A DNA stretch of 64,000 nucleotides from Takakia lepidozioides (lineage: Eukaryota; Plantae; Bryophyta): contig CM060731.1 of the NCBI GenBank assembly GCA_030704615.1, positions 36,270,001 to 36,334,000 of the forward strand. Direction: 5' to 3'. The position numbers and the translations under genes were made by a program. Below, piece by piece: positions 27,172-64,000 of this stretch; positions within the stretch are counted from its first letter, which is position 1, and every line of letters begins with the position of its first letter. The notes below the pieces were generated by a model that searched no databases, had not been told where the DNA came from, and saw only the letters and a list, made by a program, of their open reading frames with translations.

Positions 27172-28428
27172 CGGCAACAAGCACACGACGCCGAAATACA
27201 GAAAATAAAAAGCAAGGAACAGAAGCCAGAGAAAACAAGGAAGAGCACACGGATTGCAACGAACAAAAGGAAAACATACAGCATAGACAACAAAGAGGAT
27301 ATGAGTAGAGCAGCTGAAAAACCACAACGAAGAGCCGCCACCGAAGAGTCGCTTCGCGAGGAAGACATTCCGCACGTGCAGTGTAGCTAGGGGAGCGGGC
27401 ATGTGGGGGAGCAGGGGATCAGTCGATGGACACGTGTCAACAACACCAAAAGTGGGGATCAGTGATGTCGACACGTGGGGAGATCTGGGCGGTCATAAGG
27501 GGGAGCAGGCATGGGGAGATGTGAAGGGGGAGCGAACCCCTAGCCCCTCCCAGAACATGGGGATCAAAGTAGGGGGACCAGACACGTGGGGGGATGTTAG
27601 TAGAGGGGAGCTGACATGTGCGGAGAGTACTGGATATGACTTGCATGGCGATTTTGTGGTCAGGGAGGTGACATATGGGCAGCGAAGACAGGGGGAGCGG
27701 CGGGGGGGGGGACCAGACAGTGGGGGAGCAAAAACTCAGGAGGGATTGGATGTTTGGGGGTTTGCAAGTGACGGATTCAGGGAGGGAGACAACTCATGAG
27801 AGGAAGGGGACCCTAAACTGCAGGGGCAGGGAACATGAGAAGAGACCGTTGTGTAGGACGAGTAAAACACCATGCTAGGTCGAAAAAGAAATCCCTATAA
27901 GTGCATGCATTATGAGCTGGCCGGTATACAACCATCTTGGACTCTCCAACCTCCATCAATCCTATTCAGCTGCTCCATACCCAACCATGTTCGATTCTGC
28001 AACACACAGATATTCACATTTGAATCTAGCAAGGTAAGTAGTATGAAAAAACAAACATGAAGTTGAGGCTGCAACAAACAACAAACAAGAAAGAGGCAAA
28101 CAAGAAAAAACAACAAAAGAAGAAGAAGAAGAAGAAGAAGAGAAAAAGAAAACCCCCTGTACGCATTGTATGCAAGACGTGAGTCGCAAGAGAATCACAA
28201 ACGCCATAGAGCGCACACGATTGAGGCCCTGGCAGGTCATCCCAAGCCCATCAAAGCAGGAGCACGAACAAGCACGATAGCTGGAAACCCTCGCTCAATC
28301 CAGATGGAGAACCCTACCTCCACGACGAAGTGAATAGTACATGCAGGTCCACGTGGTGCGATACCCACCGTTGGAAATGGAAGGGATTGGGGGATCGGTC
28401 GAAGGGGGATCAAAGCAGGCAAGACCAG

Positions 28429-31252: not shown

Positions 31253-33961
31253 TCACCAGTAATCCCCACAAGAACACTGCCCATTCTGGAAGTGATGAAA
31301 GCGGCTGGCATCCCTAGTAACAATCTCTCGTTCAACAATCTTTGAGACAAATTTTATGGCAGTGTGGCAATCGCCACATATCCGAAGGTTCTTGATGATG
31401 CGAATAGGTGTCCCAGGGGGTGTACTGATCAGCCCGAAAGCAATGGCCAGCTTTTCGCTGTGGTGGCAGAGAACCTGTTCCTTCGATTGCTGATCCACAT
31501 CATGCAAGACAAAGCGGGTGTCCGGCACATATCCTGCCTGCTTCATCTTGTTAGTCAATCTGTCCAACTCAGCATGGATCTCTTCCCTTTGTGGGTGTGA
31601 TCTGTCTTCCACACCAAACATGTGTATCTTGTTATCGACCTCGATCCAGCTGCACCCTGACCTTTTCTTCACCCCTACTTCATCCATCAGATTTCTCAAG
31701 TTTGCTACTTCATGCCACCTGCCAGCAGCAGCATAGATGTTTGAAAGCAGCACATACACACCAGTATTTTGTGGTTCCAACTTTAAGGTGTGCTCTGCTG
31801 CCCGTTTTGCTAGCTCAACGTTACCATGGATTCTGCAGGCACCAAGCAAGGCCCCCCATACTGGGGCATCTGGTTCAAATGGCATTGTGTTGATCAATTC
31901 CTCTGCCTCATCCAAGTACCCTGCACGGCCAAGCAGGTCGACTATACAGGCATAGTGTTCCCGTGTTGGTTGAATGCCATAGGCTCGACTCATAGAATGG
32001 AAAAAGAGACGGCCTTCATCAACTAGGCCCACATGGCGGCAGGCGGAGAGAACACCAACAAGCGTGACCTCATTTGGCTTTATTCCCGCTCGTTGCATTT
32101 GCTCAAAGAGTTGGAGGGCCTTCAGGCCACAACCATGCTGGGCATATCCTGTGATCATGGCGTTCCAAGAGATTACATTTCTTTTGATAATATTGTCGAA
32201 CACTTGCCGCGCATCCCGAACACTCCCGCACTTAGCATACATGTCGACCAGGGCAGTCCCAACACAAACATCTGACTCCAGTCCCGATTCTATGACTTGG
32301 ATATGGACCCATCTGCCCTCTTCCAGGGCTGCAAGCTTGGCGCATGCGCTGAGGATACTCATGAATGTAAGCTGGTTGGGCTTCAGACCTTCTCGTTGCA
32401 TTTGCCGAAAGTATTCAACTGCATTTGTACCCTGCCCTTGCTGAGCTAATCCTGCAATTATCGCATTCCATGAGATTACATCTCGCTCAGGCATTTGATC
32501 AAATACTTCGCGTGCATCCACCACACTCCCACACTTGCAATACATGCTGATAAGGGCATTTCCCACTCCGATGTTAGAGTTGTATCCAGATTTGATGATG
32601 CCCTCATGGACCCACTTGCCCTGTTCCAGAGCTGCTGGGTCAGCACATGCATTAAGGACGCTAATGAATGCGATCTTATCTGCCTTCATTCCTACTCGGT
32701 GCATCTGTTGAAAGAGATCAAAGGCCTGTTTCCCATGCCCTTGCTGAGCAGATCCTGAGATCATCGCAGTCCAAGAGATCACATCTCGCTCAGGCAGTTT
32801 GTCAAACACTTGCCGGGCATCCACAACACTCCCGCACTTGCAGTACATGCTGATAAGGGCATTCCCCACTTTGACATTTGACTCGAAGCCAGAATTGACA
32901 ATGCCCGCATGGAGCCGCTTGCCTTGTTCCAAAGCTCTTGGGCTCGCACATGCATTGAGGATGCTAATGTAGGTGATTTCGTTTGGCTTTGATCCTTCTC
33001 GCTGCATTTGGTGAAAGAGTTCCAACGCCTCTTCACCATTCCCTCGCTGAGCTAATCCTGTAACCATTGCATTCCATGAGATCACATCTCGCTTGCGCAG
33101 TCTACCGAACACTTGCAGCGCATCCCCAATACTCCCGCACTTGCAATACATACTGACAAGGGCGGTTCCTACTCGGAAATCTGACTCGAATCCAGCTTTG
33201 ATAATGCCCGCATGGAGCTGCTTACCCTGGTCCAAAGCCGCTGGGCCGACACAAGCCTTGAGAATGCTAATGAAAGTGACATTGTCAGGCTTTGCACCTT
33301 CTCTTTGCATTTGACGGAAAAGCTCAAAGGCCTCTGCAACATGCCCTTCCTGAACATGTCCTGCAATCATCGCGGTCCAAGAGATCACAGTCCGTTTGGG
33401 CATTTTCATGAACACCTTGCGCGCTTCCACAATACTCCTGCATTTACAATACATGCTGACAAGGGCAGTTTGTAAGAGATCATCTAGCTCGAATCCACTT
33501 CTAATTATGTGGGCGTGGACAGCCTTGCCAACTGCCAGTTCCTTCATCCTACCACACCCCTGCAATAGGCCAGCACATGTCTGGGCATAAGCCCGAAAGC
33601 CTCCTTGCTCCATGAAATCCAGACTATGCAGTGCATGTTTCAATCTTCCCTCCTTGACCAATTGGCTTACATACACGCTAGTTCCACAAGTTTCGTTGTT
33701 CCATTGCTCCCCGTCTCGTCTCCGGCTCTGTCCTGCATTAGAAGCGGTGGCGATGGCGGCCAACCCAAGATTCATACCCTTGCCCGGACTCTGATATCCA
33801 ACGCAGAACGGGGTCTGCTTCCACACATCACATTCCACCTCCCCGCATGAAAAAGAAGAATGTCTTGAGTACAGGTCATTGGGCACCGAGCGAAGCTGGT
33901 TGAAGGGAAGAGTGTTGTCCATCATACACATCAGAAAGGAAGATAGAATGCAAACAGACAA
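31253..33961 (-). CDS. PLS-class PPR-DYW RNA-editing factor (paralog of 9255-12530)
   Basis: 902-aa ORF with PLS repeats, SGCSWIEV, HSEKLA..CGDCH, CSCGDYW. Start codon approximate. Confidence 0.96.
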   Translation of the reverse strand: MSVCILSSFLMCMMDNTLPFNQLRSVPNDLYSRHSSFSCGEVECDVWKQTPFCVGYQSPGKGMNLGLAAIATASNAGQSRRRDGEQWNNETCGTSVYVSQLVKEGRLKHALHSLDFMEQGGFRAYAQTCAGLLQGCGRMKELAVGKAVHAHIIRSGFELDDLLQTALVSMYCKCRSIVEARKVFMKMPKRTVISWTAMIAGHVQEGHVAEAFELFRQMQREGAKPDNVTFISILKACVGPAALDQGKQLHAGIIKAGFESDFRVGTALVSMYCKCGSIGDALQVFGRLRKRDVISWNAMVTGLAQRGNGEEALELFHQMQREGSKPNEITYISILNACASPRALEQGKRLHAGIVNSGFESNVKVGNALISMYCKCGSVVDARQVFDKLPERDVISWTAMISGSAQQGHGKQAFDLFQQMHRVGMKADKIAFISVLNACADPAALEQGKWVHEGIIKSGYNSNIGVGNALISMYCKCGSVVDAREVFDQMPERDVISWNAIIAGLAQQGQGTNAVEYFRQMQREGLKPNQLTFMSILSACAKLAALEEGRWVHIQVIESGLESDVCVGTALVDMYAKCGSVRDARQVFDNIIKRNVISWNAMITGYAQHGCGLKALQLFEQMQRAGIKPNEVTLVGVLSACRHVGLVDEGRLFFHSMSRAYGIQPTREHYACIVDLLGRAGYLDEAEELINTMPFEPDAPVWGALLGACRIHGNVELAKRAAEHTLKLEPQNTGVYVLLSNIYAAAGRWHEVANLRNLMDEVGVKKRSGCSWIEVDNKIHMFGVEDRSHPQREEIHAELDRLTNKMKQAGYVPDTRFVLHDVDQQSKEQVLCHHSEKLAIAFGLISTPPGTPIRIIKNLRICGDCHTAIKFVSKIVEREIVTRDASRFHHFQNGQCSCGDYW

Positions 33962-34442
33962 TGAGCCTCGGTGCTTTGAGCTGCATCCTTGAAATCACAT
34001 GCCTCCGAGGTCTGTTTGCGATTTTGAAAAGAGTAATTGGGTAGAGGCCCTCTGTCTGTTCCCGTGAACTGTCGGAGTGGATACCGTGTCATATTCACGC
34101 TTACACGACTTCCATGTCTGTCGATTGCTGTTGTGATGTCAAGCTTTGGGCTCATCTATTGCACATTCTGGTCATCACATTCTCTCTCTATATGGATATT
34201 TCCTCGTAAAGAACTGGAGGGTGCACCAGCACATCAAACGCCTTGGCATGGGTCGGGGAAACCTTGCCGGCTGGTTGGAGAAGAGTAGTGCATACACGAT
34301 TGCAACCTCGGCGGAAAGCGTGCCTGTCCTATCCACATCTTCTGGAGGGATCCCGGGGTCCCCAAGGCGAGCCCGCTCGCAAGCCTGGCCGCGAGCTGGA
34401 AGCCTTTTCGCGAACATGTAGCAAATTTCCAAAAAGCCCACA

Positions 34443-36210: not shown

Positions 36211-36779
36211 GGAGGGGGATACTTCCAGTATGACTGTCCCTCCTCTTTGATGCAGACCAGTTCTGATGTTTCTCTGTTAGTTGCATTGGATGTTCTGCTA
36301 AGTACTTCTAATTTAACTCTCATACAGTGAGCCATTCATTCCATATTGTAAGGTACAGAGTTCTTACTTTTTTGAATTAAGGTGTAGCGAGTTCTCACTT
36401 TCTCCAGAAATGGAGCATGATAGTTGTGTTGGGAGGTGCATACCAGAAAGTCTTATACAAGGGCGACTTGTACCCAGATTTTTTGGATCTAGCTTCTTTG
36501 TTGTGGAGGTGAACGCACTGTCAGAAGTGATTCTTAGTACTCCATGCAAAACGGGACAGTAATGGTACTGCAGCTGATGTGAGTTGGTATTTTACAAGGA
36601 CATAGCTCCATGTTGTGATGTGGAAGGGTAACCAAAACACACCCTGTTATTATGTAGCAAGGGAGCATGTCCTTATAAAGAGATCTTCTTTGAGGCGGAC
36701 AAAGATGTGTATATGTTTTTATATATTCTGGGAGTTTGAGTGTCCAGGTTTGTAACTTTAAGAGTTTGGATTATGCAGG

Positions 36780-39395
36780 ATGGCAGGGGTGAAGCAGGCA
36801 CAGTTCGAATCAGGCACCTCTGCCTTTGCAACTGTGGGTCAAGGAGAGAGAGTCAACAAGAACTCCTCTGGAACTTGTGAAGATGTGAGGACACTATGTA
36901 ACGCAGGACAACTGAAAGAGGCATTGCACATGTTGAATAAAGGGAGCATTTTGGCTGACTCGAATACTTACATTTGTCTCGTGCAGGAGTGCATCAAGTG
37001 GAAGTGCCTAGCAGAGGGAAAGCAGGTGCATGGCCACATTATACAAAGTGGATTCAAGCCAAAAATGTTTCTGCTCAACAACCTCGTTAACATGTATGTC
37101 AAGTGTGGAAGCGTGGTAGAGGCACGCCTAGTGTTTGACAAAATGCCTAAACGAGATACGTCTACTTGGAATATAATGATGGCAGGATACGCCAAGCATG
37201 GGTGTGGTAGGGAGGCCTTCAAGATCTATGAGCAAATGCTGCGGGAAGGGGTGATGCCTAACAGGGTCACCTTCATTTGTGTTCTCAAGGCATGTGCCAG
37301 CCTACGAGCTGTGGAAAAGGGCATAGAGGTCCATGCCAGCATCATTAAGGCTGGAATTCTGTCAGATATTACTGTGAACACTACCCTTGTCGACATGTAC
37401 GCAAAATGTGGGAGCATAAAGGATGCGCGCCATGTGTTTGACAATATGGCTGAGAAAAATGTGGTTTCTTGGAATTCATTGCTAACAGGATATGCTCAGC
37501 ACGGGTGGGGTAGGGAGGCTTTGGAGATATATCAGCAAATGATACGTGAAGGTGTGACACCTACCAATGTCACATTTATTTGCATCGTCAATGCATGTGC
37601 CAGCCTGGCAGCCCTGGCAAGTGGTAAAGAGGTCCATGCTGCCATCATTAAAGCTGGAATTGCACCAGATGTCATTCTACAGACCGCCCTTGTGGACATG
37701 TATGCTAAATGTGGGAGCATAACAGATGCACTCGAGGTGTTTAATGATATGACGGAACGAAATGTTGTCTCATGGAGTGCAATGATCAGAGGATATGCTC
37801 AGCATGGATGTGGTAGGGAGGCTTTGGAGCTGTATGAACAAATGGTATATGAAGGAGTGACACCCGATAAGGTCGCATTCATCTGCATTCTGAATGCATG
37901 TGCAACCCTGGCAGTCCTGCACAAGGGCAAAGAAGTTCATGCTGACATCATCAAAGCTAGAATTGCACCAGATGTCATTCTAGAGACGGCCCTTGCTGAT
38001 ATGTATGCTAAATGCGGGAGCATGACGGATGCACGGCGAGTGTTTGACAACATGGCTCAACGCAATGTGGTCTCATGGAGTGCAATGATCACGGGATATG
38101 CCCATCATGGGTTTGTTAGGGAGGCGCTGCAACTATTTGGACAGATGCGACAAGAAGGCTTGAAGCCAAACGAGTTCTCATGGAATGCAATGATCGCAGG
38201 ATATGCTCAGCATGGGTGTGGCAGGGAGGCTTTGGAGATGTATGAACAAATGACACTGGAAGGGATGATGCCTGACAAGATCACGTTCATATGTGTTCTC
38301 AATGCGTGTGCCAGCCTGGCAGCCTTGGAAAAAGGTAAAGAGGTTCATGCTGACATCATCAAAGCTGGGATTGCATCAGATGTCATTCTAGAGACTGCAC
38401 TTGCTGACATGTATGCCAAAAGCGGAAGCATGAAGTATGCACATCAAGTATTTGACAATATGACTGAACGAGATGTGGTCTCGTGCAGTGCAATGATTGC
38501 AGGGTATGCTCAGCATGGGTGTGGTATAGAAGCCTTGCGACTCTTTGAAAAAATGCAACAGGAAGGCTTGAAGCCGAATGGAGTCACCTTTTTATGTCTT
38601 CTCTCTGCATGTAGCCATGTGGGTCTAGTGAATGAGGGCTTGCATTACTTTGATTCCATGTGTCAAGATCATGGCCTCACACCGACAGCCCAACACCTTG
38701 GCTGCATGGTGGACCTTCTTGGCCGTGCAGGGCGGTTGGATGAGGCAGAGGACCTCATTAACAAACTGCCAATCGAACCAGATGCGGTGGTGTGGGGGGC
38801 CTTGCTTGGTGCCTGCAGAATTCATGGCAATCTGGAGGTAGCAGAGCGTGCAGCAAAATGCCTTCTCAAGTGGGATCCAGTGGATGCTACGACTTACATG
38901 CTGCTATCAAACATCTATGCTGCTGCTGGCAGGTGGGAGGATACAGCGAAGGTTAGAAAAATGATGGCAGACAGAGGGTTGACAAATACTCCAGGGCATT
39001 CCTCCATTGAGGTTGACAATAAGGTGCATACATTTGTTGTAGATGAAGAATTACATCCGAAAATTCCGGAAATCCATGCTGAGCTGAAGAGACTCTCTGG
39101 GCAGATGAAGCAGGCTGGGTATGTTCCTGACACCCGCTTCATATTGCATGATGGGGAGGACGACAAGGAATTTTCTCTTTGCTACCACAGTGAGAGGCTG
39201 GCTATTGCATTTGGGCTCATCAGCACTGCCCCTGGGTCGCCACTTCGTATTATGAAGGACGTCCGTGTGTGCAGTGACTGCCACACGGCCACCAAGTTCA
39301 TCTCAAAGATCGTTGGACGAGCAATTGTTGTTCGGGATGCTAATCGATTTCATCACTTCCAAGATGGGGTTTGCTCTTGTGGGGATTACTGGTGA
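36780..39395 (+). CDS. PLS-class PPR-DYW RNA-editing factor (possibly the terminal exon of a longer gene)
   Basis: 871-aa ORF with PLS repeats, PGHSSIEV, HSERLA..CSDCH, CSCGDYW. Acceptor-like TTATGCAG ends at 36778. Confidence 0.96.
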   Translation: MAGVKQAQFESGTSAFATVGQGERVNKNSSGTCEDVRTLCNAGQLKEALHMLNKGSILADSNTYICLVQECIKWKCLAEGKQVHGHIIQSGFKPKMFLLNNLVNMYVKCGSVVEARLVFDKMPKRDTSTWNIMMAGYAKHGCGREAFKIYEQMLREGVMPNRVTFICVLKACASLRAVEKGIEVHASIIKAGILSDITVNTTLVDMYAKCGSIKDARHVFDNMAEKNVVSWNSLLTGYAQHGWGREALEIYQQMIREGVTPTNVTFICIVNACASLAALASGKEVHAAIIKAGIAPDVILQTALVDMYAKCGSITDALEVFNDMTERNVVSWSAMIRGYAQHGCGREALELYEQMVYEGVTPDKVAFICILNACATLAVLHKGKEVHADIIKARIAPDVILETALADMYAKCGSMTDARRVFDNMAQRNVVSWSAMITGYAHHGFVREALQLFGQMRQEGLKPNEFSWNAMIAGYAQHGCGREALEMYEQMTLEGMMPDKITFICVLNACASLAALEKGKEVHADIIKAGIASDVILETALADMYAKSGSMKYAHQVFDNMTERDVVSCSAMIAGYAQHGCGIEALRLFEKMQQEGLKPNGVTFLCLLSACSHVGLVNEGLHYFDSMCQDHGLTPTAQHLGCMVDLLGRAGRLDEAEDLINKLPIEPDAVVWGALLGACRIHGNLEVAERAAKCLLKWDPVDATTYMLLSNIYAAAGRWEDTAKVRKMMADRGLTNTPGHSSIEVDNKVHTFVVDEELHPKIPEIHAELKRLSGQMKQAGYVPDTRFILHDGEDDKEFSLCYHSERLAIAFGLISTAPGSPLRIMKDVRVCSDCHTATKFISKIVGRAIVVRDANRFHHFQDGVCSCGDYW

Positions 39396-48830: not shown

Positions 48831-50926
48831 GTCCATATATATCAACTTCCCTTGCTTCCTACATATGCAGTTTGTCTCTGATGTGCAGTGCACATAAGCT
48901 AAAATAAAGGCCAAGAGGCTACTGCTACTGTAGCTGCCTCTATTGAAGTCCGCCATACAATGCATAGTTGAGGTCCCCTGTACTATCCCTTCTTAGCACA
49001 TAAACAACTGCTGAAATCACAAAGGAGCTAGCAAGAGGTGACTGCAGCACTCCCGCTACCATCTCCTTCCTTCAATAAAATATGGCCACAAAACACGCAG
49101 TTCACTACTTGGTTACTAGAATCACCCCAAGACAGGGTGTGCTGATGCATTTAACACATGGGCACTTGAAATGATTTAGTTATGGAATGAAAACCAAGCA
49201 ATGAGTGCCCTTACACATCTGTAGGGTAAAGGATGGCGCCCATTGTACTTCCAACAGCGTTGAATCAGATTGTAGTGGGTAAGCATTGATCCCTACACAA
49301 ATGAAGGCAAGGCACATAAAGGCACATCTTGCACAAACACAGATTTGCTAGCCCCTATACATCCCCCTCACACCAATTTGTGATAACTTTGCGATCACCT
49401 CTGGAAATGACAGAGTCGGTGCCTGAACCCTTGTCTGCATACATGCCATCAACATATGCACTGCACACTTTCAGAGAGGGCAGTTGAGATCCACTGAAAA
49501 GCCTAGCTAGTTAAGAGCCACAACATGCATGTTATTGAACTGTGTACATATGACAATATGATTGTATCTTCAAGACTTTGATAATCAAAGCACACAGAAG
49601 GCCGTGAAACGACAACTTAGGTTGGACAGATATGCATTGCAAATTGCATCTCAAATTATTGAACCAGGAATAAAAACACTATGAGATGAAGGTGTTCATC
49701 ATGGGCAGCTAAAAGAGTTTACTGCCATGCCTACATAATTGGGTCTGCCATAAGCTTAAGATTGGATCACCTTCAAATTGCATGACTATGAGATTATTGA
49801 CACACAGCTTTTTCTTCATACTGACACCAGTCTCGAAGAGTTCTAGTGAAAACCCATTTTTGGCATTAGTGTTGAGATAGACTTTAGTGGTCCGCGAAGG
49901 CAACCCACATCCTCATAAAGGTTACCGTACATAGGGCACAACCTAAACAGCAGTCGAACTGCAAATGACCCATTCGTAAGCTTGGTTGAGACAACTAATT
50001 CTACAAATGAGATCCATCAATTATCATTTTGCCAAAAACTTTTCACTTGCATCTCCCATGACCTTCCAGGAGGCCCAATGGAGGTTTACTATTTCATGAG
50101 CAGAAACCATGAGCCATGAGCCATGAGCCGCATGAGCCGCATGAGCGGTGAGCCGAAGTCTAAGATACGCGGATTTCATGAGCGGACTCCTCCAAATTTG
50201 GAAATGCGGCAGATTAAACAAGTATTAAAATAATAGTTTTTTAATTTGACCTTGCCGTTTTTGGACGTTCCAGATCATGTAATGCGGCGAAGATATGTCG
50301 TCAGTAACAAGTCCGCTCATGGTTTTATAGATCCGCTCATGGAAATAAGTGACCGTGCAACGGGAAATCCAGTATACCACTGCAAAAGGACGTCGCATAC
50401 TGGCCTGTATAGAGTATTCCGCGGTTTTACATGCCTTAACATTGGAATGAAGCTAACCCTTTTGCCGCGATTGAACCAATGGAGTCTGCACCAATACAGT
50501 CTGCAGTACTTCACAATTCTGTCTTCTTCGGGTATTCGGCGGGAAAGGTTTGCAACTGAACTGGGAAATAGGGTGCCGCATTAGGGTTCGCACGTGCGAA
50601 ATTTCGGAGCGGTTTGGTGTTGGCGAAGGCCGCCTCTGGGGGTACCTACGACGATACTTGGAAATTCGGCGCCGCATTTCCTTGTCGGAGGTCGAATGAG
50701 GAGAGCAAGTTTTCGGAAAGCAGAAAAACATGAACCCTCCAACATACAAAAATACATGCACGTGGAAACAAGTGAACGATATAGTAATATCTTAGTTCGA
50801 TCAAAACAGGTTACTGGTAGGCAAGACATATGTCGGACCTTTGTGTGGCCAGAGTCTGAGGTACTGGCAGCAGTACAGTTCTACTATCCGATGGGCGTAC
50901 CATTGTATGTGGACCGCAAGCCAAGC

Positions 50927-53900
50927 TCACTGGTCCCCTGGATCCATATTCAGAAGAGTGTGAACCTCCTGGGGGCTCAACCCTGGTGCATGTATAAAGT
51001 GATGAGTTGTGGAATTACAACGGAGTCTCTTTAGGTACACGTAGTACAAATGCTTGCAAGGGCAGTATGATGCCCCCTTGTTCGCCATGATCTGGAAGTC
51101 GGTGCAATTGCAGGTGGGTAATTCTGAAATGGTGATGGTGTACACCTCATTGCGAACAGCTGAGCCCGCCGTGGCCATCTGATACACACGCCCGAATCCT
51201 GGTGGGGGCACTTCTGTCGAGCTCTGGATTGTACAGTTCATCCGAAGTGCATTCCCCATCCTTGTCTCGTTCACTTTTGAGGGAGGTCGCCGCCTCTTCG
51301 GTTTCCCCCAACGGTGTGTAGGATGCTTAGAGCTGTCGTGTCCCATTGTTCTTGCTCTCACAGGGGTCGGTGGTGGAGGCTGTGGAAGCGGAAATGGTTG
51401 TCTGGGCACGTCAGTGCGCTGCACCATCCAAAATCCTGCGGCGGTAAGGGCGTCGGCCTCAACCTGACTCAGATCGCTGCCTGGTTCCACCGGCCACACC
51501 GGGGGAGCCTCTGGCATTGTCTGTATGCCGTACTTGGGCTTTCCATACACGCAAGTCATAATGTCGTGCCTGCAGAACCAGAACTGGGTGGTTGTCGCCT
51601 CCGCAAACTTTGCATGGACAAATCTTCCTGTAAAAGTAGGAGCAGGGACAGCCCCATCTGGATTCCTCCTTATCATCTCTAAACAACGTTGCCGTGTATC
51701 CACACGAATTGCGGAACACCTTCCTCGAAACAACGGCTTTGTGCGAGCAATTCTCCACTGTGAGGCAGACACAGTCGTCTCCACAATGGCTTGGCCATAC
51801 TGCATAACAGCGGGCGGAATGTGGGGCAAGGGAGCGGTGGGAATTTGTTGCACGAAATCCCCGGTTGAAGGCGACGGCGATCTGGAATTTCTTGGGCTTC
51901 CACTGCTGGAAGACACATTGTGCGGCAACATGACGGGACCTCGAGGTGCTGTCCGAATGTTCCTGTCGGATCTCTAGGAATCCTCTTCGCACCCGGGTTC
52001 CTCTTCAATCCTCCGCCTGACAGGGCGAGTCCGGACGTCCCCCTCTAGGTGTTCACCTCTGCGGTGCAGAGGCGTCCCTTTGATCTTCTCTCGCAATGTT
52101 GTCGCCCATTTCACTGGATTCTTGGACCTCGAAGCTGTTCGTACCAACAATTCCTCCCTGTCCGGCCCAAAGCCCCATTGTTTGCCGCTCAGGAACTTGT
52201 AGTACGTGGCTTGCTGCATGATTGCTCTGTCGATGTCCTCCGTTGTGGCCGTCACTACGTCCACCAGATGTGCGGCAGAAGACGCTCGCCAGGAGGAGTG
52301 GACCGATTCTGCCATATTCGTGTTCGGCATGTCCGTGTCGGAATCCAAGCACCGCTCCTAGAAGGACACAAACAACGGTGAGGGACCAATCGAAATGTCC
52401 GTAACAGAAAGACAAATGAACGAAATTGACAGCAGCCTACCTCCCGCATGTACTGTCCGAACTGTCGATACCGAAAATGCCACCACCCCAACCAGCTGTG
52501 CAATGCTCCCAGATTGGTTGTCTCCACTGCACCTGACGTGTTCCACCAAGCCTCGATGATAGCAAACTTAACCTCCGCGTCATCAAATGTGGGTGCATCC
52601 TTCCACGCCGTACAAAGGACACGGTGTTCAGCCTGGAATGAGCTAGCAACAAATTTGGTAGTGTAGTGGGATAGACTCTGCATCCAATGGAATCCACAGG
52701 ATCTCTCTTTCCCCTCCATTGGAACATTGGGGTCCTCACCGTACACACGCCGCACCGCTGCCCAGTTGGCCTGAGCGTTGTCTGCCATGAATCCCCTGAA
52801 ATTGGGCTCTGGCAATCCCGCCCTTGCCATCTGCTCGTTTATGCCCTCCCACAGATGCATCTCGGACTGTGTGTCCTCCCCTTTCATCTCGCAGATTGCA
52901 ATCGTCATGAGCCTCTTGGAGTGATAGTCATAAACATGCGCACCCATAGTCACCCACTGATGGTTTGTAATTCGCTTGATGTGATCAAACATCACCCAAG
53001 CATTCGACAAGTTTCCAGTTGTCATGCGAGTGACCAAGTCGACTCCACTCCCAGGCCCACACGTCGACATTTTGAAAATGTAACAACGATCGGATTCGCC
53101 GCCTTGCCCTGGAAACCTGCTACCTTGGATGTAGTCATATCCAGTCATTCGTTTCACCTCCAGGATTGAGTACATGTCCGACCCCCTGCCGAACTCCTGC
53201 TTGCAAGATACGATGTGATTCCGCACATTCGGACTACAAACGTGCGAGACGGACTCCAAGAGGTCACGCATCTCGTCTTCGGTCAAGGGCTCTCGGTCGG
53301 AACCATCTTCAGACATGATTTTGCCAAGAGCAATCTTGTGGGCTGCCTTCAGCTGAATCTGCTTTGGTCTGGCTCCGGGGCTCAATTTGACCTCCTCTTT
53401 TATGATGTCGTGTGCTTCCTGCACAGCCTCACGCATGTTGCCTCTCGCCAAGGGGTGGCAGTGGACCCCAACGTGTATGCAAGCTCTAGTCAAGTCCGGG
53501 AGCAAATGGATTACGTAATATTGCTTGGCTCTGCACATGGACATGCACGTCGGTGGTTCTTTGCAATGTGCACACTTGAAAGAACCCGCAGGAGCTTGGC
53601 TGGAGACAATGAATGGATGATGCGTTGTGCCAGTCCAATCCGTCTCGTTTCTCCGCCCTCCTTTGGAGAGAAAGTGGAAGCAGGTGGGATTGAGGCACCT
53701 CAGCTTCCCCGCACAGAGGACATATCGTACACGAACACCATCAGCAATTTTCGTGCTACTGGTCTTCGTCACACACCAGGGGTGTCCGTCATGCTTTCGA
53801 TCCATGTCTGTTAACATCCCGGAGGCTTTCTTTGACGAAGAAACAGGTGGAAACTCAAAGATGACATTGCCATCGACTTCGGGAGGCAGAAAAGTTACCT

Positions 53901-54534
53901 TTCTGACTGGGAATTTGGCATAGTCGAGAGCAGCCAGCTCGGAGCGAGAACCATCGAGGTGATGTTGTCGTAGGAGCTGCACAATGGACCGGGTTGGAGT
54001 TATGCTCGAGGGCACATGCGTAGCACCTACAGAGACGTCCATGCCGGATTTGAACGACCGTGTGGAGGACATGGGTACCTCAATGCAATCATCTTCCTCG
54101 TCGGAAATGTCGAATACGTCCACACGAGAAGCTATGGAGGGTCTTGACGGTCCAGGTCGGGAATGATTATCGTTGCATACCTCTCTGTTGGCAGTGGCCG
54201 CCTCTCGGTTTCCGGACTCCTTTGTGGATGGTGTGGGCAGCGACTGATTCGGAAAGGGAATGGGCATTCCCACAGCTCGGTACAGGATGGTGTCTGACGG
54301 GGGAACGTGCCATTCGATTCCGCAACCTCCGTCGTTACCTAGCACGACAATGGTCTCGTCAACCTGTCCAGGAACATCCTTCCTTTCTTCTTCCAAATAA
54401 ACTGTGCCCGGTTTGAGCTTGAATTTGGAACAAAGGTAAGTTTCAGTCACTCTGCAAAGTCCTCCCTCGTTTGGGATCCAGGCTCTCCCAAGTTGCGGAG
54501 GACAGCAAACTATAGCGTAGGAATTCGGAGCCAT
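50927..54534 (-). pseudogene. MULE-type DDE transposase with N-terminal GCM/WRKY-like Zn domain and C-terminal SWIM finger; premature stop
   Basis: DGHPW...CAGKLRCLNPTC...CAHC..C...HVGVHCHP; D (WVMFDH), D (FMADNA), CxxH (CGFH), E (NMAESVH) after a phase-0 intron 52358-52440; SWIM CNC..CPCKH. In-frame TAG at 51974-51976. Confidence 0.85.
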
Positions 54535-54963
54535 CGAACACCGCACGGAGTTGGCAAGTGCGAGGTTCAGTATAGCGACAGACCAAGGCTCACAGGCACC
54601 ATCTAAGTGGATCTGCGGAGTCCATCGACGATTGGAAGTCGCACATTGAAGTGGAAAGTATTGTTTCAAGCTACATGCATAAAGGTGGGAGGTTTGATTC
54701 CATAGCCAGTGAGTAGGACAATGATGGCCGATTCGGCGACGAAATAACATCTCCTGACAGTTTCTCCTGAGGGTGGATCCAGTAGTATTCTCGGTGCAGA
54801 CAGGAACGTTCGCACTGACAAGTGCCAGGACTGCTGGTTAAAACGGTCAGACAACCAAGTTGTGCTCATCAAGACTGGCCGCAATTGTGTTGTTTCGGAA
54901 CAATGCAACCCATTGAGGTTCCAGATTTCCCGTCACGAGTGATTCTGTCGATTGCTGGTGGAC

Positions 54964-56655
54964 GGAAATACGGCGCCGCATTTCCGTATTGCATCTTGGT
55001 CATGCAACAGAGCGACGGAAATGCGGCACCGAGTTTCCGTCCGGGGGAAACCTTTATACTCTCCAGAACGGAAATGCGGTAACGCATTTCCATCCAGCAA
55101 GCACGGTATGTGAAGGTGGAACGGAAATGCTGTACCGCATTTCCGTTCTGATTGAGATTTATGAACAACGGGAACAGAAATGCGGCACCGCATTTCCGTC
55201 CGAGTCGCACTTTTCGACATTCCAGAACGGGAATGCGGCGCCGCATTTCCATTTTGTATCTGATGCATGGAGCTGAGGGATAGAAATGCTGCAGCACATT
55301 TCCGTCATTCAACAAGCACGGTATGTGAAGGTGGAACGGAAATGCGGTACCGCATTTCCGTTCTGATTGAGAATTATGAACAACGGGAACAGAAATGCGG
55401 CACCGCATTTCCGTCAAAGTCGCACTTTTCGACATTCCATAAAGGAAATGCGGCGCCGCATTTCCATTTTGTATCTGATGCCTGGAGCCGAGTAAGATTC
55501 CGACAGCTTCATACAGCGCAATTCCGACCGGTTGAGACATTCACACTATCCAGAACGGAAATGCGGCACCGCATTTCCGTTCTGACTGAAAATCGTGAAC
55601 TATCTGAACTGAAATGCGGCACCGTATTTCCATCCGAGTCGCACCTACCATCATTCCAGAACGGAAATGCGGCACCGCATTTCCGTTCTGACTGAAAATC
55701 GTGAACCATCGGAACTGAAATGCGGCAACGTATTTCCATCCGAGTCGCACCACCATCATTCCAGAACGGAAATGCGGCACCGCATTTCCGTTCTGACTGA
55801 AAATCGTGAACCATCGGAACTGAAATGCGGCAGCGCATTTCATCCGAGTCGCACCTCCCAACATTCCAGAACGGAATGTATTAGATTTAAAAGGGAAATG
55901 CGGCACCGCATTTCCGTTCTGATGAAATATCCTGAAACATCGGAATTGAAATGCGGTACCGCATTTCCGTCGGAGTCCCACCATCCGACATTCCAAAACG
56001 GAAATGCGGCACCGCATTTCCGTTTTGTATGTGAGGCATGGAGCTGTGGAACGAAAATGCGGGAAGGCATTTCCGCCAGCGTCAGACGTTAATACTCTAC
56101 AGAACGGAAATGCGGTACCGCATTTCCATTCTGACTGAAAATCGTGCGCAACGGGTACAGAAATGCGGCACCGCATTTCCGTTCGAGTCGCACCTTCCGA
56201 CATTCTCGAACGGAAATGCGGCGCCGCATTTCCGTTTTGTATATTCGGCCTGGAGCTGTGCTACGGAAATGTGTTGCCGCATTTCCATCCATGTGAGACC
56301 TTCAACCTTTCCAGACCGGAAATGCGACACCGCATTTCTGTCCAGGTGAGACCTCTATACTTTCCCGAACGGAAATGTGGCACGGCATTTCCATTCATCA
56401 ACTAACGTATGTGAAGTGGGAACGGAAATGCGGCGCCGCATTTCCCTTCTGAATCTCATACATGGAGCTGTGGGACGGAAATGCGGCACCGTATTTCCGT
56501 TCAACAACTAAGGTATGTGAAGGTGGAACGGAAATGCGGTGCCGCATTTTCTTCAACAAGTACGGATGTGTAGCTTCGTGATGGTACTTAACGGAAATGC
56601 GGCGCCGCATTCGCATTCTCGCTCCAACTCATCAGACGCTGGGACGGAAATGCCT
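54964..56655. repeat. Phased array of ~30 palindromes GGAAATGCGG-YR-CCGCATTTCC, 53-bp period
   Basis: Unit starts: 54964, 55017, 55070, 55123, 55176, 55229, 55282, 55338, 55391, 55444, 55557, 55610, 55663, 55716, 55768, 55821, 55894, then every 53 bp to 56530, 56593, and a half-site at 56646. Confidence 0.97.
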
Positions 56656-57049
56656 TGAAATGTGAACACGTGGAGCAACGGAATTGCTGCACATGTCGGC
56701 ACTCTATCTGACTGAAGGGGCATGAGGCGGCGCGGCCTGACCGTTGGATAATGATGTTTGATTTTCGGACGGCGGGCGTACCCTCAACGATTCGAATTTC
56801 GTAATGACGCAAACTCCACGAGGAGACACTTTCGTCCAACCTTTCGAACCCAAGTGGTGCATCACCGCCGTTTCATCTACTTTTGTCGTGTCTCCTCAGT
56901 CACCCCTCTCGCGCCCTTTCCATCTGCACTCTTTGCCCCTTTTCCCTCTCTCTGTTCTTCTTATGCTCGAACCTGAGAGGGGGGGAGTTCGTGCACCAGA
57001 CAGGAGACCTCGTCGCAAGCTCCGGAAATTATACTTCGGACGTAGGCCA

Positions 57050-60000
57050 ATGCCGAAGGGGAGGAAGCAGATGCGTCTACAGGAGGAGATTGCCATCTCC
57101 GAGCAGCAGGCCACTCAGGCAACCCAGCCACCAGTGAGAGCTCCATGCGATCGGGCTGCGCGCAGCTGATCGAGCACCGAACCCCCCATTTTGCTTCTGT
57201 AATTCTTAGACTGAATGCTAGGAGACTTGAATGCAGAACATGTTTGCATGCCTAACAGGAAAGGTGGACGTGCTGGAGGGATCGCAGGAATCCGAAGAGC
57301 CGCAGGAAGAGTCCGAGGAGCTAGCTGCAGCACGTACACCCACCCGATCCCCGAGCGCGGGTACTCCTGCCGGGCCTAGCCCTCTGCGATTCAAAGACGC
57401 GTCTTCGAAGGGCAAGTTCAAAGTCTCAGAGATCGACTCGCGTTCTTCGATCATGGAGAATCGCCAGCAGGGGTCGGGCCCTTCTCCAGCAAAGTCGAAG
57501 AAGAAGCAGCCCGTCCCTCTACTGGCTTCTGAACCGGCTCAGGCCGATTCACCCCCCCCAACGCGAATGAAGCAGCAGGGTAGAAGACAGATTCTATTGC
57601 AGCAGACACCTTCACCTGCAAGGATGAGGAAGCAGAAGGCAATCAGGGCGACGGCCGAACAATCTCCCGCAAAACCGCTTCCACGAGCTGAAGCTCAGTT
57701 CCTGGAGGATTTCCCGCCTGCAGATGTTGGGGCCGACTCTGCTGCAGCGAAGGCAATGGGATCGACCGTTGATCTCGATTTGGTACCGGAGGAGGGTGCT
57801 GCCGCTGAACGTTCGCAGGCAGACCTCACCACCGATGAGCTAGCAGGCCCGGAGGAGGCCTCTGCAAGTGGCAGAATTGCCCGCACACAGGCCCCAGAGT
57901 GCAGCTCCAGTTGAGGATGCTCCACCTGCTCAGCCACTACCGGCACCTACAGACATGTCTCCGGAGGATTTCAAAAGTGCAGCGGATAAAATGTTGGAGG
58001 AGACACACAGTAGCATTGGCAGAGTTCTGGGCAGCAGGGTATTCCAGCGGACTCTTCGAATCCCACTCTGTCGCATGGTCTCCCTTCCCATCGTCAGGCA
58101 GGCCCTTCCCGGAGATGTGGATAAGCTCAAGTTCGCATTTCGAGAAGGGTACCGTCTGGGATCGGCAGCGTTTTACGTTTCCATAGAGAATGAGGACGGC
58201 GAAACCCGTGGACCCACTGCCGATGAATTGTCAACGTGGGATACCCACTGGACACTCGCAACCACGAATTCGAGGCGACGCTGAAGGGTGATCCCGACTT
58301 CGGCCATATGTCGGGAAAAATGTTCTTTGTGTGGGACGGGAATCACCGACTTCTCGCCTGGTGGGAGTACATCAAGCAGAACCATGCCAAGCACATTGGC
58401 TGGCATTACATGGTGGAGTGTGTCATCCTCAAGGTGAAGGCGGCAGACTCCTCCCTCCTCAAGAATGCCATGGCGGACCTCAACTCGTAAGATACTCATA
58501 CCCTCCCTAGCACATTCGAAATGCGGTGCCGCATTTCGGTTTCCATTCTGGTTTGATTCCGTGCTTCCGTGTACTGAACTGGAGAGTGCCTTGCAGGGTC
58601 ACTGAGAATGCGTAGTGTACCCACATGCACATGGCTGTACATGGTGAAACAGTGAGGAAAACTGGTCTTACTGATCCGCAGATGTTGCGGAAAGGAGCCG
58701 GAGCTCATTCAGAAAGCCGTTGCAAAAACAGACCGGAATGGTAGTCTCACTATGGATGGAATGGTGGAGGTGATATACGAAGTAAGTCGTGCTCCAATTT
58801 CCCCTGCTCATCCTTCCCCAATTTCCAGTAATGTTTCCACATGAATCGAATGTAACGCTTCTGCATGTTTTTGTTGGCAGTCAAACATCAAGCTGGATTT
58901 GGCCCATGCCAAACGCTTCTTCATGGAAAGTGAGGGGCAGGTCAAAACGTTGCAGTCATTGACTGAGCACTTGAAGGAAGCCGGTGTCAAGTCCAGAACC
59001 AAATACAAGTCAAAGCTTGTGAAGCTGGTGGCAATTGCAGATCCGGCACTTGGAAAGGACTTCATCCCCGAGATTGCAAAACACTATTCTCGGGCCATGC
59101 AGCCGACCATGCAATTGAGAGAAACTGCATCACCTCTCAACGGCATGTGTGGAGGCGAAAGAGAAGGTGAGGTTTCAATGCACTGAATTTCCTTCCTAGC
59201 AATAGCCACTCTCTTCCAGCCACTGACATTGGATCGGAAATGGCAGACACGGTGGCTGTCGATCTGGAATGCATCCGAGAGCATAAGGACAATGTGGTCT
59301 TTTCCACTGGAAGTTTCCGACCCTGCAGTGGATGTGTGGCTCAACCGCATGACTTGGTGGTTCCAGGTAATTCAAGGTACTTCCCCAGATTTGCTTTTCT
59401 GACATGAATTCCCTGAACTGCTACGTGACAATGCATTGGGAATGGCAGGTAATGTCGAATGCAAAGGAGCAAGTCGTAATGCACACAAATTCGTTCGGCT
59501 TGTACGTCAAATGGGATGGAACACAGACATTGGAAGACTACGTGACACGTTTCAGATGTGCGTACAAGGACAACCTTTTCGCCAGAGAGCTACAGACAGC
59601 AAGAAGGAGCGTGGAGTTTACACATCAGGAGGGAGCGGGGAAAGCTGCAATGCGAATTGTTTACAGGTGAAGCACAGCTGCCCTTGTATGCGAAGCCTGG
59701 TTACGAGGTTTGTCTCGGAAATGCGGCACCGCATTCGCATTTTATGTTTTCGGTGGCACTCTGCCAGTAGGTTGGTCTCAAGTTTTGCTCACGCATGCTG
59801 ACTGCCTTGCAGGTATATGAAATACGTGCTCCTTCAGACAGGGGCCCTGGCTCAAGAGCCCCCGTTCTTCATGGCTTGGACCGTGGCGGGCCCAAGCTGT
59901 GTCTACACACCCGAGATGCAGAAACAATGGCATCCCGCGCATCTCGTTGGATGCCCGTGGTACCTGGACATGTCTGGCGGTATTGTTGACGAGTCTGAGA

Positions 60001-62162
60001 AAGATCTGCACGCCTTGGCAGAAGAGAAGAGAAAGGAAAGACGTGTCCCTGCTGGGCCAAAGTCGGCAAAGGAATCTGCTGCTCTGGAAGAATCCAGAAA
60101 GGCAGCTGAGATGGCACAAAAGACGGTGGATGCAGCTGTGCAGGCCCAACAGAAGGGGTCGAAGAAGAGGACTCGCCAGCAAGGAGCAGCTGTTGTGACA
60201 CCCGCCAAAACGAAGAAGCAGAAACAGCCTGTTCAGGAAGAGGGTGAGGAAGAGGACTCCGATGGAGACTTTGCAACCAGCCCACCCCCCCAAACGCAGG
60301 CTGCCTCCCCTGTGCCCACCGTTGTCACCAGAGGCACGAGAACTGGCTCGGCAAAGAAGGCACTCTTCAACCCCCAGGGGGGCACCCTTTCGAGCCGGTG
60401 GAAATGAAGAGGCCGAAAGTGGCTCCCGAAACTGTAGTCCAGTGTGTAAATGAGAGTTTCTTGGCGGCTTTGGATGGACGGGCAGCCAAGTTGGCATACA
60501 TGAAGACCATGGAGGGTCTGAAGGGCAGAGCACTGAAGAAGGCGACTGCCGAAGAGCCTTCCGACACCCCAGGATTTCAGAATATGTCTCGTTCTTTGAG
60601 AGGGTGTGTGCAGACAAGGATTGTGGAGGGGCGGAAATGCCACCGAGTGGTCTTGCGATATGATCATCTTGGATATTCCGGACGGAGAGCCTGTGGAAGG
60701 ACTGCAAGCTTTGCCATCTTGGAACAGGTACTCGGAGGACTTTTGGAAGAAAGGATTCGGGCTTGCCCGCATGGTGTTGGACGACAGAGGCTGTGTGGTT
60801 GTCCTGGCGAGCAGAGGAAAAAACACTCAGACAGGAATTGCGAAGTGGACCCGCAAGAGCGCCGTCCCGATTCTGAAAAAGAAGTGGACGTGCATCAACA
60901 CACTGGGCCTTCGGTCGGAAGGGAAGAAGGTGATTACGACACTGGCACTCGTCCATTCATTTGCTTGGGTGCTTTCAAATGCGGTGCCGCATTCGGTTTC
61001 TAATCGTTTTCCCCTGTGTATGCAGACGAAGCAGTTCGATGCATACTGCTTTGTGAAGGAAAACTCCACCTTTGCTTTCCGGAAGGAGGGAGGAAAGGTT
61101 GACCCGAACTGCGACCCACTCGATTACGACGTTCTGTTCAACAACGTTCCCAAGGAACTTCTCCCTCATAGCCTCACTTCAACGGAACCCCTGCGGTACT
61201 CACGGACTCGGAGCCCTGCGTTCATTCAGACAATTATGGAGACATGCACAGACGTGGAGGGCACAGTGCTGGACCTCATCTGTGGGACAGGTATGCAGAA
61301 TCTTGATCTCTGCTGTTCTGCAAATTCTCGTTAGGATGTAGTTCGCAACATCTGAAGCGCCATGTGGTAATGTGTGGATGGCATTGTAACAGGTGCCTCA
61401 ATGTGGGCTGGGCGGTTTTCCGACCGGCACCTCTTTGCCTACGAGGAGGATTCATCCGTGTGGGGATCCCATCTGGAGGGGCTGCAACGGAATGTGAAGG
61501 CTCCCGACAGAGCGGAAGTCTCCTCGGATTCGTCGGAGTCCGAGGAAGACACAGTGGACATTGATGCAGAGGAGAACCCGGAATACGAGTGAGTGCAAAC
61601 ATTGTAAGTTTGCAAAGCCTTCTGGGTCATTTATGTCAAAGGAATTTCACGACTGTGGTTCTCATTAGTCTCGTTGATGATTGTCATGTGCAGGATTGCA
61701 GGGTCCGGGTCGAAACATGTAGGGCCTACACTTCCTGCCAGGAAGAATGTCCCGTTCTTTGCGAGGGCCGACTTCATGACGAGCCCGGTGAGGGACTACT
61801 CCCTTCCTAGTTATGCAGCTAAACTCGCAAATACAGCGATTAGAAGAAGTGAGAATCCCAGTAAAGTAGAGCAGATTTTGGAGAGGGCTAGGGAGGACAG
61901 AAGGATAAGGAAAGAGTTGGCAGCAGCTCAGACAGGTAGACGGGTACGAAAGTACATATGTGATTCAGCGGATGAGAGCGACGCAGACAGGGAGGAAGAC
62001 GACCCAACGGAGGTGAGATGGACAGTTCCGCAAGGGGAAGATGGGATTTTCGAAAGCCTGGCCAACGAGCAGTCCGCCGGAGATGAGAGAGGCACTGAGG
62101 GGGTGGAGGAGGAGCAGGACAGTCTAGAACAGGATGAGGATTCCGATGATTTTCAAGATTAA
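57050..62162 (+). pseudogene. Multi-exon gene: ParB/Srx-like domain + beta-class (N6A/N4C) DNA methyltransferase fold + acidic tail; frameshifted
   Basis: RIPLCRM..VRQALPGDVDKLKFAF..GY and FFVWDGNHRLLAW (~58335). CDMIILDIPDG (motif IV-like, ~60672). RSPAFIQTIMETCTDVEGTVLDLICGT|intron|GASMWAGRFSDRHLFAYEED (motifs X-I-II). GT-AG introns, e.g. 58487-58597 and 61291-61393. Frameshifts near 57900, 58255 and 60400-60620. Confidence 0.72.
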
Positions 62163-62350
62163 TAGAATTTTAATGAAGTCTCTGTAAATGTAAATTCTCT
62201 TCCAGAGTATATAAAGAAAATTCTGCCCGACATTCGTGACCCCTCTCCAGTGTGCATTCCAGCCACACAATCGCCCAAACCAGGACGCTCCCAAAATCAG
62301 AAATGGGTCAGGGCATTTCCAAAATTTTGGCAACTCTAAGAACCTCTTTT

Positions 62351-63135
62351 GGAAATGCGGCACCGCATTTCCAAAACAGGGGAGGGACTAATTTTTCCAT
62401 TTCAATGTTGGCATAGTAAAAAGTAATCTTAATTGGGAATGCGGTGCCGCATTTCCAAAATTTCCTTTGTCCACACGCCAGTTTTGGCCTCTCCCGCTCA
62501 TTGCATGGATGCCACCACGCTTACAGAGGTCGAACAAGGAGGTCGAACAAGGAGGCCGACATGGCGGGATTGGAAATGCGGTGCCGCATTTCCATATTGG
62601 GGATGGTGGTTGTTCGAACTGCAGACCCATCAGCAAAAACTGGCACCGCATTCCATTGTAAAAAAAAAGTCGATGACGGACATGGAAATGCGGCGCCGCA
62701 TTTCCAGAACGGACATCGCAATTTGTCAATTTGCAGACCCTCTCTCGGAAATGCGGTAACGCATTCCATCGCGCAAGTCGGAAATAGGTGCACTTTTCGA
62801 AGTGTTGGACGGAAATGCGGCACCGCATTCCCTTGTCCAAAAAGAAGTTTCCATTGCCAAGCTGGAAATGCGTCGCCACATTTGCCATGCCAACCTCGTT
62901 TTCTGATCAATTTATAGACCCGTGTTGGTATTTCGTGTACCTGGACGGAAATGATGCACCGCATTTTCTTGTCCCACATGGAAATGCGGTGCCGAATTTC
63001 GATGTCCGACATGGAAATGCGGTGCCGAATTTCGATGTCCGACATGGAAATGCGGTGCCGCATTTCGATGTCCGACATGGAAATGCTGTGCCGCATTTCG
63101 ATGCGGACATGGAAATGCGGCACCGCATTTCAATG
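62351..63135. repeat. Second cluster of the same palindrome (~14 copies), ending in a 33-bp tandem array
   Basis: Copies near 62351, 62435, 62572, 62684, 62747, 62811 and 62864, then 62947, 62980, 63013, 63046, 63079 and 63111. Confidence 0.93.
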
Positions 63136-63435
63136 TCCGACATGGCGTTACTCTGGTATATTCTTGACACATGACTCACATACCGGTTACTCTGCTTTAT
63201 TCAACCAGACAGACAAATTGTAGAAATGAGACATCAAATTGTAAACAGTGGGCCAAATCCGAGAGTTATTCAACACAATGAAACACAGTCATACAGAAGT
63301 GAGGTACATTCCAGGGCACAGTCACTGCCAGGTGGGCCGATAGCCACTGGACACGACGAAGTCCATCCCCTCTTCGATGTAAATGCGGCGCCGAATTTCC
63401 ATCCGGGGGGATGGACTTCGGTGGCAGATCTCAAA

Positions 63436-63951
63436 CTATAACTTGTTGATGAGAAAGATGTATGGGTTCATCCACCGCTGGCGTGATGAACACGTTCCAC
63501 CTCCGTCGGTGGGTACGTGTGACCCAGATGCTCCATTTTGGAGGCCGGACTGCTCTTCCGCTTCGTATCTTTTCCAAAATCTAAGGGCTTCGTAGCTGTC
63601 CGCAAGGTCATCGGCATCCAAGTCGTCCTCAGGTCCTCCTTTGCAAGGATGCCGTGCTTCCGGAACCGGGACGACTGCCCCTTTGGAGGCATCGATTATG
63701 CAATGTATTCGGCCACATCGGGAGACATTGTTATCTGGTACACAGATTACACAGAAGATACTGGTTCGATTGTGGAAACATTGGTGGCTTTTGAGTATAT
63801 CGTAGGCCACTACGCCTTCGAGCGGGGTGACGATCTTGGTTTGAGGAGTCCGTGGCTCCTGCGCATCCTCGATTCCGATTTTCCCAGCTACGACGGTCAC
63901 CCATGCAGAAGAAGGCGCACTGCTATGCTGTTGCGGTGGAACTGCTGCCAC
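63436..63951 (-). other. ORF of unknown function, possibly the 3' part of a third gene in the element
   Basis: 171-aa open frame near the window edge; no recognised motif. Confidence 0.25.
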
Positions 63952-64000
63952 TGGACGTGGGTGGACTCCATCGGAGAGACCTATTCTCCTCGAGGAGTGC

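Follow-up and report, generated by a model that had tools for sequence, protein, structure and literature searches.

What does a DNA amino-methyltransferase fold do in a moss genome when its motif IV lacks the usual aromatic residue? This question is raised by a window of 64,000 nucleotides, the whole stretch of DNA analysed here, from Takakia lepidozioides (GenBank GCA_030704615.1, contig CM060731.1, 36,270,001 to 36,334,000, forward strand); all positions below are those of the window. A preliminary description had placed a beta-class domain with DIPD instead of DPPY/SPPY at 60606..61480. It left three readings: an inactive SAM/DNA-binding derivative, a decayed copy of an active enzyme, or a transposable-element reservoir related to the N4C methyltransferases of Marchantia and bdelloid rotifers.

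Location and predicted fold of the domain

Positions 60627-61490 are predicted to form a beta-class amino-methyltransferase fold, coded across two GT-AG introns. The exons, introns and motifs of this region are as follows.

60627..60929, + strand: 3' part of exon 7, with motif IV DIPDG (60672-60686), PSWN (60714-60725) and the motif V-VI strand region
60930..61025, + strand: first domain intron, GT-AG, containing one palindrome (60977)
61026..61290, + strand: exon 8, with motif X LRYSRTRSPAF (family form WRGAREKSPAF) and motif I VLDLICGT (61266-61289)
61291..61392, + strand: second domain intron, GT-AG, phase-1, separating motif I from motif II
61393..61588, + strand: exon 9, with motif II HLFAYEED (FAYEED 61434-61451) and an acidic tail
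61694..62162, + strand: predicted last exon (predicted splice sites only), with a low-complexity acidic tail and stop

The order IV...X-I-II, first read from the window alone, was borne out by the alignment of the family with phage enzymes, and VLDLICGT is indeed joined to ASMWAGRFSDRHLFAYEED across the intron at 61291-61392. The domain that had been drawn from 60606 is present, but no exon starts there; coding sequence continues upstream of about 60606. Single-base differences of other runs at 60585 and 60624 make 59813-60929 one exon, and an intron at about 60580-60614 was rejected because this stretch is coding in other runs.

In the window copy the first domain intron reads through, and the structure model gives most of it a pLDDT <50; it is absent in the contiguous homologs P0011, P0014, P0015 and L001. 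At the second, a separate motif II exon, ending EED, was found in five of seven further metagenome loci, the remaining two ending short of motif II; the fern homolog P0014 is contiguous at this position. Both introns were assigned from their GT-AG ends and homology, as no matching contig carried a splice joint at either of them, and one X10 contig continues unspliced into the first. Skips at 61285-61367 and 61299-61368 in the DNA run X3 were rejected as splicing.

The fold was supported by several comparisons. The ESM Atlas returned 30 matches, the best 6 of which were all N6_N4_Mtase clusters (top score 0.93). A 28-row family profile searched against the PDB found M1.HpyAVI first (E 5.5e-6), with CcrM (0.053) and RsrI among the weak matches. 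An hhalign comparison of 13 family rows with 7 phage beta-class enzymes gave a probability of 97.4 and an E value of 1.5e-11 over 183 columns. The structure modelled for the window ORF (mean pLDDT 73.8) was aligned by VIA-align with M.MboIIA (Z 12.3, rmsd 4.5, 165 aligned), M.BceJIV (12.1), CcrM (12.1), M1.HpyAVI (10.9), PvuII (10.9) and RsrI (10.6). The best 20 rows of this fold search were all beta-class or MT-A70 enzymes, with 11-20% identity to the top structure rows, and the model of a fern homolog matched CcrM with a Foldseek E value of 3.5e-12.

Sequence searches were far less sensitive. Recovery of N6_N4_Mtase by profile, on which the preliminary description had staked its assignment, failed with Pfam (PF01555 matched neither the window ORF nor any of 18 homologs) and succeeded with the ESM Atlas, the family profile and the fold search. 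The window ORF sequence had no match in Pfam, PHROGs, NCBIfam or the PDB, nor did word-indexed homolog searches with the single ORF, at longer and near lengths, return one. A PHROG DNA methyltransferase match was obtained for P0014 only, confined to motifs X-II (E 2.9e-5), and tblastn of P0014 against phages gave weak matches in motifs X-II only (best E 0.05). Scans of viral contigs, GTDB genomes and a first metagenome set, by short exact patterns only, found no relatives. Levivirus coat and exonuclease III matches were rejected as short and without support from the predicted fold. The domain is built like the beta-class enzymes and, by its motif IV, stands outside their canonical members.

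Motif IV and the catalytic residues in the family

A phmmer search over 1.84 billion representatives gave 18 homolog clusters at E up to 0.001. Motif IV was scored in the 14 clusters that cover it and motifs X and I in 8, as counts in alignment columns. The first position of motif IV is Asp in 13 of the 14 clusters and Gln in the other, never Ser; the second is a small hydrophobic residue in all 14, Pro follows in 13, and Gly closes the motif in 12. At the fourth position, D, E, T, S or N is found in every cluster and an aromatic residue in none (0/14). DIPDG is therefore not a sign of decay, as the aromatic-less motif, correctly read from the window copy, is the family consensus. In the seven metagenome loci the motif is DIPEN or DIPEG. 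No member bears a name apart from hypothetical proteins of Adiantum nelumboides and A. capillus-veneris.

Other catalytic motifs deviate as well. In motif X, Gly occupies the His column of HPTQKP in 8/8 clusters and the Lys is kept in 6/8, with Arg in its place in the window copy. Motif I retains its first Gly in 4/8 and its last in 6/8, and the window reads ICGTG. The column of CcrM Thr191 holds Arg or Lys in 6/8 (the Arg of WRGAREK). Motif II keeps its acidic residue, as EED in the window and five loci and as END or DND in the fern proteins. The 15-member cluster P0015 has Gln for the motif IV Asp and Leu for the motif X Lys, and some such deviant homologs may be dead copies.

The motif IV region of exon 7 aligns with D[PLI]PYG of phage enzymes and the Trp 3' of that motif. 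In the seven aligned phage enzymes, Tyr and His are always kept (7/7) and the motif I Phe is absent in three. L008, L014 and L015, with DLPYG or DIPYG, are nearest to the family in motif style, and the simplest history would be loss of the Tyr from a phage motif of this type. The Trp 3' of motif IV occurs in 14/14 clusters and likewise in the Tyr-bearing phage enzymes L008, L014 and L017; we therefore rejected the Trp of PxWN as a substitute for the lost Tyr.

According to the accessible text of PMC6787082, CcrM grips the flipped adenine through the Asp side chain, motif IV backbone groups and Lys193, with the base stacked between Tyr34 and Thr191. Stacking of the flipped base by Tyr is described for CcrM there and for N4CMT in the available part of PMC10406627. 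Direct mutant evidence, as given in the accessible part of PMC8885841, comes from Ser and Tyr altered together. Since the aromatic stack is lost throughout the family, the His column is lost and the motif I Gly is lost in half, we consider it probable, from these residue patterns, that catalysis has been given up family-wide. Of the three readings first offered, an inactive SAM/DNA-binding derivative is the one we favour.

A somewhat unlikely alternative is an active methyltransferase with a rebuilt pocket, in which activation of the amino group is left to Asp, the motif IV backbone and the motif X Lys, another side chain such as the WRGAREK Arg stacks the base, and 4mC or 6mA is written on the element's own palindromes. 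We kept it because most clusters retain the Asp and the motif X Lys and because in RlmJ a Trp from another motif, outside motif IV, provides the base stacking (PMC3814359, accessible text). The Pro, the Arg/Lys at the Thr191 column, the acidic motif II residue, the purifying selection on the domain described below and the existence of phage DLPYG/DIPYG enzymes without the motif I Phe also fit it, as does an algal ParB+MTase cargo that has been suggested to modify the element carrying it (PMC12477816, available part). However, it must accommodate the complete loss of the aromatic residue and of the His, the relaxed motif I Gly (4/8), the changed Asp and Lys of P0015 and the Arg for Lys of the window copy. 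The Trp after motif IV, being shared with Tyr-bearing phage enzymes, offers no family-specific replacement.

The family could also be the pool from which Marchantia DN4MT1 or rotifer N4CMT was drawn, or be closely related to either, which we regard as very improbable. Both occur in eukaryotes and share the fold class (PvuII Z 10.9; the rotifer N4CMT is row 7 of the fold search, with Z 10.3 against 12.3 for the best). However, the known enzymes read TSPPY or SPPY and no cluster has Ser at the first position; the Marchantia enzyme is without extra domains in the accessible description (PMC8885841), and no homolog match was named as such an enzyme, most matches being unnamed. In the reservoir idea of the preliminary description, the transposon part holds, as the gene is transposon cargo, and nothing ties the family to the N4C enzymes of Marchantia (TSPPY) or rotifers (SPPY).

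The cargo gene and its copies

The methyltransferase-fold domain is the C-terminal part of a cargo gene whose spliced product has about 1,360 residues, not counting a first exon that is unsettled. Its upstream exons are as follows.

56963..57133, + strand: possible first exon, start and donor unsettled, proposed from sequence only
57259..58486, + strand: exon with a disordered N-terminal part and ParB/Srx-like VWDGNHR (58329-58349)
58597-58781, 58881-59166, 59247-59366, 59449-59666 and 59813-60929, + strand: exons 3-7, from tblastn of homologs

In the nine-exon model (57259-62162), all eight introns are GT-AG. A middle domain (within 58597..60626) is common to the homologs and includes CPWYLD at 59952-59969. 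One contig of run X9, which is RNA by guess only, has the spliced joints 59164^59245 and 59363^59446, and so omits two of the model's introns exactly; none of the matching runs listed is recorded as RNA.

We take VWDGNHR to resemble the ParB/Srx signature, and the phage proteins L010, L011 and L016 carry GGHQR or GEHR at a ParB/Srx-type motif. The ParB-like domain had no match in Pfam, PHROGs, NCBIfam, the PDB or phages. Its hhalign score against ParB was 15.1, exceeded by 2 of 30 shuffles, with a template of only 3 sequences.

The window copy has about ten frame breaks of 1-2 bases upstream of the domain (at about 57868, 58251, 58737, 58743, 59118, 60370, 60585 and 60624, among others) and a stop in exon 3. 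Between the breaks the translated segments are stop-free, most of exon 3 being unresolved. Other runs covering the break sites have the alternative form, wholly or largely, and several breaks lie within short base runs. The breaks may be assembly error or the mark of a dead copy, and in both cases the family gene is likely open.

Within exons 7-8, 14 of 15 variants among the best 40 of 70 differences were synonymous, against 23% expected (p ~1e-8, the variants not being independent). Among all exonic variants in the same set, 19 of 24 were synonymous, again not as independent events. In a divergent copy in X7/X10, 4 of the 6 changes listed were replacements. The domain is under purifying selection.

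These data bear on the reading of the motif as copy-specific damage to a DPPY/SPPY enzyme. The frame breaks and the stop would agree with it, but the motif is common to 14 clusters including those of ferns, no variant falls in DIPDG (60672-60686) among the best-supported differences listed, the domain itself is open with synonymous variants, and most of the upstream breaks do not recur in other runs. We therefore find a decayed copy scarcely credible, and this part of the preliminary description is not supported.

The gene is present in many copies. For 60560-61560, runs X1 and X3, from one sample, matched with 7,530 and 2,449 contigs, at identities from above 99 to under 90, and in the very small assemblies X4 (1.75 Mb) and X7 (3.7 Mb) all 30 gene bins were covered; run X8 had no matching contig. 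The wide identity classes and the full cover in tiny assemblies indicate many copies, depth itself not being copy number. At a loose end in X3 and X6, motif X has its family form, PWRGAKEK; therefore other subfamilies share the host. Contigs of X9, X10, X3 and X6 match only the stretches of VWDGNHR (58319-58372) and motifs X-I (61211-61333) and then diverge, which suggests that the host also has more distant subfamilies.

The element, its palindromes and the proposed function

The cargo gene stands head-to-head with a divergent Mutator-like transposase gene. The features of the element outside the cargo gene are as follows.

50560..50685: the two leftmost palindromes, near the element's left edge
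50927..54837, - strand: putative Mutator-like transposase gene
53715-53452, - strand: Cys/His-rich region
52998-52972 and 52791-52768, - strand: two D motifs
52698-52684, - strand: CxxH
52324-52298, - strand: E region
51112-51044, - strand: SWIM finger
54960..56620: central array of 30 palindromes GGAAATGCGG(YR)CCGCATTTCC, mostly 53 bases apart, between the two genes
62340..63400: right-hand cluster of 14 palindromes, with five steps of 32-33 bases (62949-63113)
63436..64000, - strand: possible third gene, an open frame that the window end truncates; a palindrome (63381) lies immediately beyond the frame

The order D, D, CxxH, E, SWIM is what we take to be a Mutator transposase signature. Pfam gave no MULE match for this gene, and SWIM scored E 0.038, under the cut-off. 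The third open frame (63436..64000) had no Pfam or PHROG match. No terminal inverted repeat was found within 48-64 kb, and the element's right end is probably beyond the window. A short repeat of CATGAGCCG units lies at 50108-50152, near the apparent left edge. The linkage of cargo and transposase was seen in this window only, the relatives' sequences, at 1.2-3.7 kb, being too short to show it. The ParB-like motif, the transposase partner, the palindromes and the second domain intron go beyond the preliminary description.

The palindrome has an 18-base core (22 with flanks) and occurs in 49 copies at up to 3 substitutions; none lies in coding spans (0/49), none left of 50 kb, and none was found in 20 shuffles. 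Three are in three cargo introns. As 53 bases are about five helical turns and 33 about three, the sites would lie on one face of the helix. The CpG observed/expected ratio is 0.70-1.37 in the element compared with 0.43-0.55 in the PPR genes and gypsy pol, a comparison confounded by the CGs of the motif and by element age.

The rest of the window contains other genes and elements. Long intact PPR frames ending in DYW (9255-12566 and 31253-33994, - strand; 36762-39395, + strand) are presumably typical of RNA-editing factors, and 5268-7795 (- strand) we take to be exons of an SRP72-like gene. A gypsy-type element at about 13-30 kb includes a C5 cytosine methyltransferase frame (20326-21243, - strand; Pfam DNA_methylase E 3e-13), which adjoins the RT and integrase frames. 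Open frames at 24154-27799 (- strand) lie in or beside this element, one with a C2HC-like finger (YKCKFCG...H...C). The three DYW-PPR genes and a gypsy element with a C5 methylase suggest that the host is a land plant without seeds.

We tentatively propose, at somewhat less than even confidence, that the gene is a conserved cargo of a multi-copy Mutator-like transposon whose pseudo-methyltransferase binds the element's own palindromes and acts against silencing as VANC does. The ParB-like part would recognise the 22-base palindrome, and the protein would load at the array of 53-base (five-turn) spacing and at the intron sites. The methyltransferase-fold domain would then clamp the DNA, probably as a dimer, and the coated palindromes would protect the promoter region that transposase and cargo share from host 5mC silencing, as VANC protects VANDAL elements.

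The palindromes could instead serve transposition, with a dead fold that pairs their clusters into a transpososome and replaces terminal inverted repeats. That no such repeat occurs in 48-64 kb, that clusters lie towards both edges and that the sites are in helical phase would suit this role. However, 30 of the 49 sites are central between the genes and three are in introns, which fits regulation better than end pairing, and the element probably extends past the window on its right. We consider it distinctly improbable, and prefer the anti-silencing role.

VANC is a functional precedent: by the account in the accessible part of 10.1101/2025.02.11.637652, binding to and alteration of the own element have been shown for VANDAL/VANC alone. 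There, too, a short motif is multiplied in the non-coding parts of the element (PMC5735166, available text), as all 49 of 49 sites are here. Unlike the present protein, VANC has DUF1985/DUF287 domains, its motifs are short and non-palindromic, and its activity was shown whereas ours is inferred; the accessible text of PMC5735166 leaves its mechanism of action open. The cargo frames scanned had no Pfam match to DUF1985/DUF287. Inactive methyltransferase domains have been described in DIRS1 elements (PMC4738411, accessible part).

Among cargo genes, the closest descriptions are algal. The Ectocarpus element Sola1-1_Ec32 carries an accessory gene for a protein of 1,104 aa with ParB-like and N4C/N6A methyltransferase parts, and the accessible text of PMC12477816 also refers to green and red algal elements with such cargo. 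As here, the cargo and the transposase are on opposite strands, the ParB-like part (putative in the present family) and the methyltransferase part are in one protein of similar size, and the protein is proposed to bind and modify its own element (PMC12477816). In contrast, Sola1-1_Ec32 belongs to a brown alga and has a Sola transposase, whereas the present element is Mutator-like in a land plant, the two being compared by description.

Bostrychia Plavaka elements (PAG2/PAG3) have ParB-like cargo beside tandem inverted-repeat arrays and a PF01555 methylase in the same elements, and related cargo occurs in Chondrus Mutator elements, as described in the available part of 10.1101/2025.02.11.637652. 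In those elements, however, the methylase, which carries SET, and the ParB-like protein, which carries a 2OG oxygenase, come from two different genes, and Pfam does recognise the methylase, whereas the present cargo is a single, putatively fused gene that Pfam misses.

Phage ParB-MTase fusions also come close. With CcrM, M1.HpyAVI, M.MboIIA, M.BceJIV and the phage enzymes, the family shares the fold, the order IV-X-I-II, Asp-x-Pro, the acidic motif II and the motif X Lys. It differs from the bacterial and phage enzymes in lacking the motif IV aromatic residue, in having Gly for the motif X His, a relaxed motif I and an insertion before motif IV, and in its introns. MpDN4MT1 and the bdelloid N4CMT resemble it as beta-class folds of prokaryotic origin in a eukaryote, but they are active host genes with (T)SPPY, whereas the present family is multi-copy cargo with DxP[DET]G (10.1101/2021.02.12.428880, PMC8885841 and PMC10406627, accessible parts). 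In the literature searched we found no paper on a land-plant aromatic-less lineage or motif, and supplements may describe the family. New here are the motif IV count across the family, the test for selection and the comparison residue by residue.

The family is a second candidate of this kind, unrelated to VANDAL/VANC; its site of 22 bases is defined, and its domain belongs to a known fold. As Pfam misses it, it has likely escaped surveys of plant amino-methyltransferases. If the enzyme is dead, selection in distant plant lineages would have kept a methyltransferase fold in a new role as a chromatin shield. If it is active, the definition of motif IV would widen and plants would gain a transposon-written 4mC/6mA mark. 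An active enzyme with a D-x-P-[D/E/T]-G site and WRGAREK stacking, loaded through its ParB-like part, whose 4mC/6mA on phased palindromes blocks host 5mC, seems to us unlikely; it would amount to a private, transposon-encoded epigenetic mark in mosses and ferns that is invisible to Pfam.
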